Source: Fidelibacterota bacterium
GTDB lineage: Bacteria > Fidelibacterota > SORT01
Direction of reading: 5' to 3'
Assembly (NCBI GenBank): GCA_022571215.1
Contig: JACZYG010000014.1
Location: 3,884 to 67,883, forward strand
Length of the DNA stretch: 64,000 bases
Shown one piece after another: positions 18,856 to 51,197 of the stretch. The notes beneath the pieces are model-generated. The model made no database searches and had not been told where the DNA came from. It saw only the letters and a program-made list of their open reading frames with translations. A program made the position numbers and the translations under genes. The stretch's first letter is position 1. Each line of letters begins with the position of its first letter.

Positions 18856-19146
18856 GGAAAATATTCAATTTATTCGAATCTACTTTAAGTTAAACCGCTC
18901 TGACCCTTATATGATAAAGGTTAGAGTAAATCATCTTTTTTTAGGTTTACTTGAATTGAAAGGGGGAATTACCCAATATTGCTACAGTAACCCGCCCGCA
19001 CCTAACGGAGTTGTTTAACTACATTCTGCGTGTGGAGAACTTTTATACATAGATATTGTATTGGTGGCGATTATATGGGGTGGAAGTGGGGGGTGCCAAT
19101 AACTCTTTACTTTTTATGTACGGTCAGGGCTTCGGAAGATTCTGCG

Positions 19147-20133
19147 TTAATTGTCAAGTGATAATCGTTCATAATCAGGATCGAAGAGTATTTGATTTTT
19201 CAATACTCCAATGACAATGTGAAGCAGTCTTCTCATACAAGCAGCCACCGCCACCATCTTAGGTTTTCCTTTAGATATTAGTTTCATGTAGAACCGACTG
19301 ATTATGGGATTATATCTGATGGCAGCTAATGTCGGCATAAATAGAGCGGCTCTCAACCTTCTGTTACCTGTCTTACACAGTCTGCTCTTTCCCTTGCGCA
19401 TACCGGATTGCCTTTCACTTGGCGCCAGACCGGCGTGGGCTACCTGCTTCTTTGGCTCAAGACTCCCGTTTATCTCGCTAAGTAAGATTCCGGCAGTGAG
19501 ATCTCCTATTCCCGGAATAGATGTCAACAGTTCTTTGTTCTTTTTAAGGTCCGGGTGGTTATCCAGATGCTCTCCTATTTGCTTTTTTACCTTTTCGATC
19601 TGCTTGTCGAATGATTTAATCATCTGCTTAACAGAGGACTTGATAACCGGAGTCTTCGCAGACTCAAGGTAGCTCATCTCATCGGCCCGTTTACGGATGA
19701 GATGATCCAGATGCCGGGTCAATGCCCTTAACTCGCGCACATCTTCGGCAAGAGCAGGCGTAGGAGAAGGTTTATGTGTTGCCATATATCGGGCGATCAT
19801 TCGGGCATCAACACTATCGTTCTTTGTTCTGATCAACTGAGACTGGATAAATCGTTTTACCTGGATAGGATTGAGCAGACTGATCTCAAAATCAGTGTGC
19901 ATCCTCATCCACTCTACCATCTCTGTTTCGTATCCGCCGGTGGATTCTATGCCCATATGGACAGCGTCTGCTTTGCAGCGAGACTTCTCTTTCAGCACCC
20001 AGCTCTTGATTTCATTCCACCCGCGTCTGTTGTTGCCGAGTTTCTTAGACGAACGTTTGATAGAACCATCGGACGATTCGATAGCGCTCGCGAAGTCATG
20101 CTTTGCCATGTCGATACCAAGATACAACTTCAT
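19147..20133 (-). CDS. IS110 family DEDD recombinase/transposase
   Basis: LGIDMAK, ESTG, KNDSVDA, SIPGIG, GLAPSERQSG, GNRRLRAAL. Confidence 0.96.
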   Translation of the reverse strand: MKLYLGIDMAKHDFASAIESSDGSIKRSSKKLGNNRRGWNEIKSWVLKEKSRCKADAVHMGIESTGGYETEMVEWMRMHTDFEISLLNPIQVKRFIQSQLIRTKNDSVDARMIARYMATHKPSPTPALAEDVRELRALTRHLDHLIRKRADEMSYLESAKTPVIKSSVKQMIKSFDKQIEKVKKQIGEHLDNHPDLKKNKELLTSIPGIGDLTAGILLSEINGSLEPKKQVAHAGLAPSERQSGMRKGKSRLCKTGNRRLRAALFMPTLAAIRYNPIISRFYMKLISKGKPKMVAVAACMRRLLHIVIGVLKNQILFDPDYERLSLDN

Positions 20134-20174
20134 CTTTTACCCCCATTCTTTAACGTCTCTCCTCAACGAACCAC

Positions 20175-20372
20175 CCAGTCCTTCCCGTTTCTTATCTTGC
20201 TCATGCAGGGTCAACAGCCCTTAGATTCTGCCCAGATTTAACCGGAAAGCGGGCGGGAGCCAATCTTCCGAACAGGTTCACAGACCTAGGAGTCCAAGCC
20301 GGCTTCAATCCGCCCGGAGATATACGTCTTATTGCTGTTATAAATAACATCATAATATACAAAAATTCTAAC
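20175..20372 (-). ncRNA. Predicted bridge RNA (ends approximate)
   Basis: 5' hairpin; target loop with guides at 20296-20288 and 20272-20265; donor loop with guides at 20231-20223 and 20200-20196; each guide pair separated by a short stem-loop. Confidence 0.8.
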
Positions 20373-20407
20373 AAACGATAACATACAAGGAGTTTAGGCA
20401 ATTAGTC

Positions 20408-21198
20408 CCCTAACCCGCACGAGTCCGATAATTCCCCTCTATCAAGAGGGGTAGCCGATCCTTTAGAAATCTTAAAGCAAAAGGCTGGGGTGTGTAATAG
20501 AGATATATGATAAAAATTTGACGCGTTTTGCAACTGACAACTTCTGACACACCCCGTCTTTTATCCCGAACAATCGAGATAAAATCCTCCGTAGGAGTTC
20601 CTTCGGAACACCCCTCTTGATAGAGGGGAATTACGCGCATCAGAGATGCGATGTGCGCGAGTCATCCCGAAGCTTCGGGATGACACACCGCATAACCACA
20701 TTATAAAGGCGTCAGGACAAGTCCTGACTGCCACTAAATACTTTGTCTTTGCGAGGAATCCGTCAGCTGACGGATGACGCGGCAATCTCATGCTGATAAA
20801 ATTAATCTGAGATTGCTTCGTCGTTTCCTCCGCATTCTTCGGAGATCACTCCTCGCAATGACTGCGAGGTGCGGTCAGGGCCAGCCCGACATTGCTCTGG
20901 TGGGCAATCTCAAAATTTAAATTAACAGATTAGCCTTTACACACCCCGTCTTAGATAATCCGCGATTATCTAATCCACCCCTCTTAATTAGAGGGGAACA
21001 TAAGGATTTTATTCTTTGATTTTAAACAACCCCTTTGTCCCCTCCTTAGGAAGGAGGGGATGAAAAGTTCCTCTCCCCTTGAGGGGAGTGTCCGGCTTAT
21101 GCCGGACGAGGGGTGTAATCGTACGATGATAATTATTCTGGAGAGAAGATCAGAATCACACCCTCCGTCACTCCATGACACCTCCCTCGAGGGAGGAG
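20408..21198. repeat. Dense island of family A, B and C palindromes
   Basis: More than ten hairpins homologous to those at 27-220, 1103-1522 and 61820-62544. Confidence 0.85.
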
Positions 21199-50828: not shown

Positions 50829-51197
50829 ATGATCCAGACGCAAACAAAATTGATAGTGGCTGATAACACCGGCGCAAAAAGCATCATGTGTATAAAAGTT
50901 TTGGGGGGCACGAAAAAACGTTACGCTACTTTAGGCGATACCATTGTAATTACGGTCAAGAGCGCGATACCTAACGGCATGGTGAAAAAGGGGCAGGTTG
51001 TGAAGGCGATAATCGTACGTGTAAAGAAAGAACGGGCGAGAAAAGACGGCTCTTATATCAGATTTGATGAAAACGCCGCGGTGCTCGTCAACGATGCTCA
51101 GGAACCGATAGGCACCCGTATCTTCGGTCCGGTAGCGAGAGAACTTCGCGAGAAGAACCATATGAAGATAATTTCCATGGCTCCGGAGGTAGTGTAA
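50829..51197 (+). CDS. rplN: 50S ribosomal protein L14
   Basis: [19 protein letters not shown]. Confidence 0.98.

Follow-up and report, generated by a model that had tools for sequence, protein, structure and literature searches.

The window analysed here, a stretch of 64,000 nucleotides (nt) from a Fidelibacterota bacterium (contig JACZYG010000014.1, positions 3,884 to 67,883), carries on its minus strand, at 19137-20389, what is very probably a complete insertion sequence of the IS110 group that works like IS621 of Escherichia coli, i.e., with a recombinase directed by a bispecific bridge RNA. The evidence comprises four guide segments fitting the element's own ends and its insertion site, an RNA fold kept among orthologues whose guides change together with their targets, and contigs of public sequencing runs in which the same site is empty. 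The element, delimited from the minus-strand reading and the empty-site contigs, has the dinucleotide CT (the core) at each junction and is 1251 bp long when one core is counted. On the minus strand, to which all features of the element refer below, the left junction consists of TAAACTC (20396-20390), CT (20389-20388), and TGTAT (20387-20383), and the right one of GCAGAAT (19145-19139), CT (19138-19137), and TCCGAA (19136-19131). The left end comprises 256 nt of non-coding DNA and is followed by a gene of 328 amino acids (aa) at 19147-20133. An earlier reading of this DNA, made from the letters alone (the sequence-only reading), had proposed an IS621-type bispecific bridge-RNA layout with a CT core; all of its strings were found where it had placed them on the minus strand of 18900-20600, and the layout itself is borne out by the kinship of the protein, the covarying helices, and the guides tracking their targets.

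The core of the bridge RNA, ca. 146 nt long and located at 20174-20319 by the covariance model R1 described below, comprises a target-binding stem-loop (20251-20315) and a donor-binding stem-loop (20181-20249). The former is built of an outer helix GGGCGG/CCGCCC (20315-20310 with 20256-20251), a helix AGCC/GGCT (20304-20301 with 20261-20258), and an apical stem AGGT/ACCT (20287-20284 with 20277-20274). The target loop had originally been described as closed by GGGCGG/CCGCCC; this helix is present, but the direct closure is formed by AGCC/GGCT, GGGCGG/CCGCCC being the next one down. The donor-binding stem-loop consists of a basal helix CTTTCCG/CGGGAAG (20249-20243 with 20187-20181), a TT/AA segment, a helix TCT/AGA (20236-20234 with 20192-20190), and an apical helix AGGG/CCCT (20221-20218 with 20210-20207).

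The internal loop of the first stem-loop holds the guides for the insertion site, and that of the second the guides for the joined ends of the element. The left target guide TGGACTCCT (20288-20296) forms nine pairs of nine with the complement of TAAACTCCT, seven of them Watson-Crick and two G-T wobbles; all seven of its non-core positions pair, five in the Watson-Crick manner. The right target guide TTCGGAAG (20265-20272) is the exact complement of CTTCCGAA (CT-TCCGAA), with 8/8 pairs, so that the core is included in both target guides. In the donor loop, the left guide GCAGAATCT (20223-20231) is identical in 9/9 positions to the last nine bases of the element (GCAGAAT-CT), and the right guide GCAAG (20200-20196) pairs with CT-TGT in 5/5 positions, one being a wobble; together with the dinucleotide AT that follows (20195-20194) it occupies 20194-20200. 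Within the 64-kb window, GCAGAATCT is found at two places and no others, namely the right end of the element and the donor loop, 0.84 occurrences being expected on both strands. According to Durrant 2024 (PMC11208160), both left guides, that of the target and that of the donor, pair with the bottom strand and hence carry top-strand letters, the right guides bind to the top strand, and all four contain the core. All four guides of the present element obey this strand rule.

The gene was recognised by its Pfam domains, DEDD_Tnp_IS110 (E 6.5e-25) and Transposase_20 (E 6.8e-21), and by its match to IS621 (chain 8wt6_A, E 1.2e-42, residues 4-319); a related recombinase of solved structure, that of ISCro4 (PDB 9t56), matches over the same residues 4-319 with E 1.2e-39. 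Alignment to the catalytic residues of IS621 named by Hiraizumi 2024 gives D8, E63, D106, D109, and S243, a complete DEDD/Ser set. Among 31 homologues (52-98% identical), E63, D106, D109, and S243 never vary and D8 is conserved in at least 90%. A homology search returned 618 relatives, the nearest with 98% and 89% identity. These alignments place the recombinase in the IS110 family, as a DEDD/Ser enzyme akin to that of IS621. The source organism is an uncultured marine-sediment bacterium, and the nearest named relative locus lies in a Candidatus Neomarinimicrobiota genome. Three more IS110-family recombinase genes are present in the same genome (C28:2939-3394, C46:253-720, and C1:1708-2142); they were considered as kin of the window element and rejected as different elements, because the R1 model does not match them.

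The conservation of the RNA was assessed in orthologous loci drawn from further genomes of the phylum (5 of 400), from a scan of genome contigs with a single protein, which gave one locus only, and from 80 metagenome loci. The six helices were written on a MAFFT alignment of 15 RNAs, free of redundancy, whose loci have 53-93% protein identity. In this alignment 88.4% of the cells pair, as compared with 83.7% in shuffles, none of which reached the observed value in 500 trials, and no more than 66.6% after sliding of the partners. The target helices GGGCGG/CCGCCC, AGCC/GGCT, and AGGT/ACCT are paired in 98.9%, 100%, and 100%, with changes on both sides in two, three, and one of their pairs, respectively; the apical donor helix AGGG/CCCT is paired in 100% and has one such pair. 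The two basal helices of the donor loop reach 71-73% in the MAFFT alignment, where they are partly misaligned. In an alignment fitted to the model, which favours the structure by construction, they reach 80% and 91%, with 55% for the two-pair TT/AA segment; in the same alignment 88.2% of the cells pair versus 64.9% in shuffles, and changes on both sides are seen in 30/30 pairs.

The covariance model R1, built from the 15-RNA alignment, finds the window RNA with 140.6 bits (E 1.3e-30) and has no other match in either the window or the entire genome. It matches 57 of the 86 sources, in every case upstream of the recombinase gene and on the same strand, and, among the metagenome loci, 51 of 80, some with a protein identity as low as 34-44%. 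An upstream RNA with two stem-loops, of which the first has a variable loop and the second a conserved one, is thereby found here, and a variable target loop next to a conserved donor loop is what Durrant 2024 (PMC11208160) describes. On this comparative evidence the RNA fold is conserved, with compensatory changes. One orthologue, L014 (76% identical; L014:453-659), has a bridge RNA enlarged by two hairpins, of which the first separates the basal helices of the target stem-loop from each other and the second, of ca. 39 nt, belongs to the 3' strand of the donor loop; it still scores 89 bits with R1, and its guides still fit its own flanks.

In the target-binding stem-loop, the stems are kept and the loop strands vary from locus to locus. 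The seven non-core positions of each guide were scored in 18 loci, against the flank of the same locus and against those of the others. The left target guide fits its own flank in 6.31 of 7 positions on average (16 loci with a left flank) versus 4.33 for the flanks of others, and the right one in 6.20 of 7 (15 loci with a right flank) versus 3.97; in 20,000 permutations the observed sum was not attained once, for the one guide or the other, a result that overstates independence, since the compared loci are related and some have common guides. L007 (64% identical), for example, occupies a different site, and its loops read its own flanks in 10/10 (left) and 8/8 (right) positions. The left donor guide GCAGAATCT, for its part, is invariant in the 18 aligned loci, and the right end equals it in all 16 loci of the 18 that retain one. 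The target guides of the orthologues, as far as their sequences tell, change with the target. In four loci, L022, L025, L026, and L028, the left guide fits the flank in its seven target positions, and its core positions are AG, AA, or GG, not CT; the left guide of this subgroup seems not to pair with the core.

The sequence-only reading had reconstructed the uninterrupted target as TAAACTC-CT-TCCGAA and had itself proposed that a different empty site would speak against it. Logan contigs of four public runs (two of DNA and two of RNA libraries) were mapped onto 18900-20600. In each of X3, X17, and X18, i.e., in three of the four runs, one contig joins 19135 to 20387, skipping 1251 bases; the joint has three ambiguous letters and its minus strand reads exactly TAAACTC-CT-TCCGAA. 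The presence or absence of the element is therefore scarless, at a short core and with no long target duplication, and each piece of these contigs departs from the window by no more than two letters in its flank. Insertions at unrelated sequences, another outcome named beforehand as damaging, were not encountered: the other sites found for the element are identical or compatible with the guides. Loose ends at 20393 (X3, X17, and X18) lead to another left flank ending in CAGACTC-CT, with a 7/7 guide fit including two wobbles, and those at 19132 (X1 and X3) to another right flank, CT-TCCGAGG, with a 6/7 fit. A second copy, with the same left flank, ends contig C8 and is 92% identical over 74 matched bases. 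Contig C48 overlaps the C8 flank over 279 bases at ca. 92% identity and continues through the uninterrupted site, which by sequence makes it a related empty allele. Taken at the level of sequence, then, the element has probably been mobile recently. The copies in X1 and X3 differ from the window at RNA positions 20298 and 20215, and that in X18 only at 20298; one of these positions precedes the left guide by two bases and the other falls in the apical donor hairpin loop, the guides being unaffected.

The target lies at the tip of a hairpin repeat that is ca. 55 nt long and dispersed. A profile built from six copies gives 12 matches in the genome at E <1e-3, two of which are the halves split by the element: the left half at 20390-20420 (minus strand; nhmmer, E 5.3e-6) and the right half at 19117-19136 (minus strand), the latter delimited by reading the flank. 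Joining the flanks in silico restores the hairpin of the intact copies, which comprise an outer stem and two small hairpins with the CT core in the loop of the second. A small GGC/GCC hairpin is located just 5' of the left target in intact repeats and is degenerate in the window copy. Copies of the repeat are found also in genomes of the same genus and of the same family; three intact ones searched against Rfam 15 gave nothing at E 0.1 or better. A DNA search of relatives gave matches in 4 of 41 genomes, the element's own included, those in G002 and G003 being the target repeat and that in G033 a 70% relative.

Most repeat copies, including those of the main repeat family, differ from the right guide at one position, at which the window copy is exact. 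A wobble-permissive 15-mer pattern of the target has three exact matches in the genome (ca. one expected), none of them in the main repeat family. An unoccupied site, TGGACTC-CT-TCCGGA, is located on contig C1 (minus strand, position 51079 of the reverse-complemented contig); the left guide fits it perfectly and the right one with a single wobble, and it is a predicted preferred target.

As to the mode of action, work on IS621 suggests that the element would be excised as a circle whose joined ends form a promoter. The right end has a -35 box, TTGACA (19152-19157, minus strand), and the left end a -10-like box, TATGTT (20380-20385, minus strand), both recognised by reading the sequence; joining of the ends would put the first 17 nt upstream of the second. 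TTGNNN is present at the -35 register in 14 of the 16 orthologues with a right end, and TA[TCA]GTT in all 17 with a left end. IS621 is reported to rebuild a sigma-70 promoter across its joined ends (Hiraizumi 2024; Durrant 2024, PMC11208160), and its RNA is described as weakly expressed from integrated copies (PMC13626964). By analogy, the junction promoter would transcribe the bridge RNA, and recombination between circle junction and target, carried out by the RNA–recombinase complex, would take place at the CT core. In IS621 the base pairs of the so-called handshake link the target loop with donor positions 6-7 and the donor loop with target positions 6-7 (Hiraizumi 2024). Here, the AT that follows the right target guide (20264-20263) is complementary to donor positions 6-7 (AT).

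Beside the relatedness of the compared loci, several observations weigh against such a reading of the element. Of the checks proposed by the sequence-only reading, folding gave no support: the minimum-free-energy fold of the non-coding end is no better than that of shuffles (z 0.65). The best Rfam 15 match on the region has E 0.7 and no bridge-RNA family was found. Because the single-sequence fold and Rfam were uninformative, the test of structure was made comparative. The 8-mer CTTCCGAA is not rare by itself (8 matches versus 4.7 expected); the weight of the match comes from its placement in the correct loop and from the orthologue comparison. Some guides fit poorly: L013 (93% identical, the closest orthologue with a left flank) has a left guide with 5/7 and has lost its right end, L018 has a right guide with 4/7, and L012 a left guide with 5/7, although L024, with the same guides as L012, fits its own flank in 7/7 positions. 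No joint of right end to left end, as expected of a circle, was found in the contigs of the four runs, an absence that is uninformative either way since contigs drop rare forms. RNA-library contigs cover 20126-20393; they reach into a flank and may be DNA. The depths in these libraries, 407 and 760 for the left end versus 13-38 for the gene, were considered as a sign of expression and rejected, because each is the mean of a whole contig that extends into another flank.

The remaining difficulty lies in the donor-loop handshake. The AT at 20195-20194 pairs in 0/2 positions with target positions 6-7 (T, C), and it would pair with the donor's own A6-T7. In IS621 itself only one of the two donor-loop handshake positions pairs, and a donor-loop base pairing with donor T7 strongly reduced recombination, such cognate pairing blocking strand exchange (Hiraizumi 2024). 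The element might then have the full bridge-RNA layout and be immobile or strongly attenuated, its handshake pair favouring the state before exchange and its insertion being old, with which the single full copy assembled in the genome, accompanied by one fragment at a contig end in the DNA search, would agree. We regard this as unlikely: the reading frame and the catalytic residues are intact, as the sequence-only reading had held and as stands for the sequence; filled and empty alleles coexist with flanks no more than two letters apart per contig piece; and at least two other insertion sites exist. Moreover, the first donor-loop handshake base is A in 17 of 18 orthologue loci and is therefore probably tolerated in the clade. 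For the same reason there is a small but real chance that the clade follows a handshake regime different from that of IS621. Target position 7 is T in 13 of 16 loci, where the A could pair after exchange, while the window target has C7, which cannot. Such a regime could possibly take the form of a built-in brake keeping insertion into abundant hairpin repeats rare, or of a one-base shift of register compared with IS621; either, if true, would give an extra design rule for bridge editors.

It may also be asked whether the RNA chooses the site at all. All sites found for the element belong to the same hairpin repeat family or to a look-alike, and for ISPpu10 a 2026 preprint reports added specificity from a stem-loop next to the target, so that the recombinase might mainly sense the shape of the hairpin repeat, RNA complementarity being secondary or coincidental. 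This is very improbable in view of the orthologues inserted in unrelated targets, whose guides read those targets, as shape alone does not predict; the stem-loop of ISPpu10 is, besides, described as an added layer and not as a replacement. Hardly credible is the notion of the structured left end as a leader controlling translation or stability of the recombinase mRNA, with no guide RNA involved. The structured region does lie directly upstream of the gene, and older work, mentioned in Durrant 2024 (PMC11208160), saw the ends of IS110 elements as regulators; yet beyond the stems it is the loop letters that follow the flanking DNA across loci, and wherever a locus retains its right end, the left donor guide is identical to it. 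The reading of 19137-20389 as an IS621-like element with a guide RNA is preferred.

The likeness to IS621 (PDB 8wt6) extends to the same two Pfam domains and catalytic residues, an RNA in the left end with the target loop preceding the donor loop, the same strand rule for four guides with a CT core, an AU target-loop handshake pairing with donor A6-T7, a -35 box in the right and a -10 box in the left end, and insertion into a palindromic repeat. The two differ in that the proteins are distant relatives (the E of 1.2e-42 given above), the donor-loop handshake, here AU, is at odds with the target, the host is an uncultured bacterium of marine sediment, and the right target guide has eight contiguous bases as compared with the 4-base guide of IS621 (PMC11208160). 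With ISCro4 the comparison is by sequence search alone. ISPpu10 and ISPpu9 of Pseudomonas putida are likewise described as IS110 elements residing in repeated intergenic palindromes; a possible counterpart of the ISPpu10 stem-loop, which lies 5' of its target, is here the GGC/GCC hairpin, degenerate in the window copy.

IS1111-group elements have recombinases of the same family and a seekRNA with two guide loops. Their RNA is encoded downstream of the gene and they possess subterminal inverted repeats, whereas in the window element the RNA lies upstream of the gene.

Other features surround the element. A scan for promoters gave none in the left end and one strong site outside the element, at 19099-19070 on the minus strand, sigma-70-like (TTGGCA, an 18-nt spacer, and TATAAT; 11/12). 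It lies just downstream of the right end, so that the element sits directly upstream of a likely promoter, ca. 240 nt upstream of a 178-aa frame (18832-18296) followed by a 314-aa frame. To judge by their sequences, these two may be mraZ and rsmH. A second dispersed palindrome, CCCCTCT-loop-AGAGGGG, has 17 copies in the genome with up to two mismatches, among them those at 20434-20451, 20611-20628, 1146-1163, and 1289-1306 of the window. Two inverted copies adjoin the element, and the public contigs break there with many loose ends and high depth.

The mechanism has been known since 2024, and the element is a clean further example that leaves its understanding unchanged; its position in a repeat is usual for the family. 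Thousands of such RNAs and orthologues were predicted by Durrant 2024 (PMC11208160), and the window element may already be in the orthologue lists of that work. Its left target guide shows G-T wobbles in natural use, and the site on C1 that this guide matches perfectly is unoccupied. As a natural bridge recombinase the element is compact, with a protein of 328 aa and an RNA of ca. 146 nt, and belongs to a marine-sediment lineage that has been little studied; as its four guides, target, empty site, and orthologues with varied targets are all defined in sequence, it is a ready candidate for tool mining.

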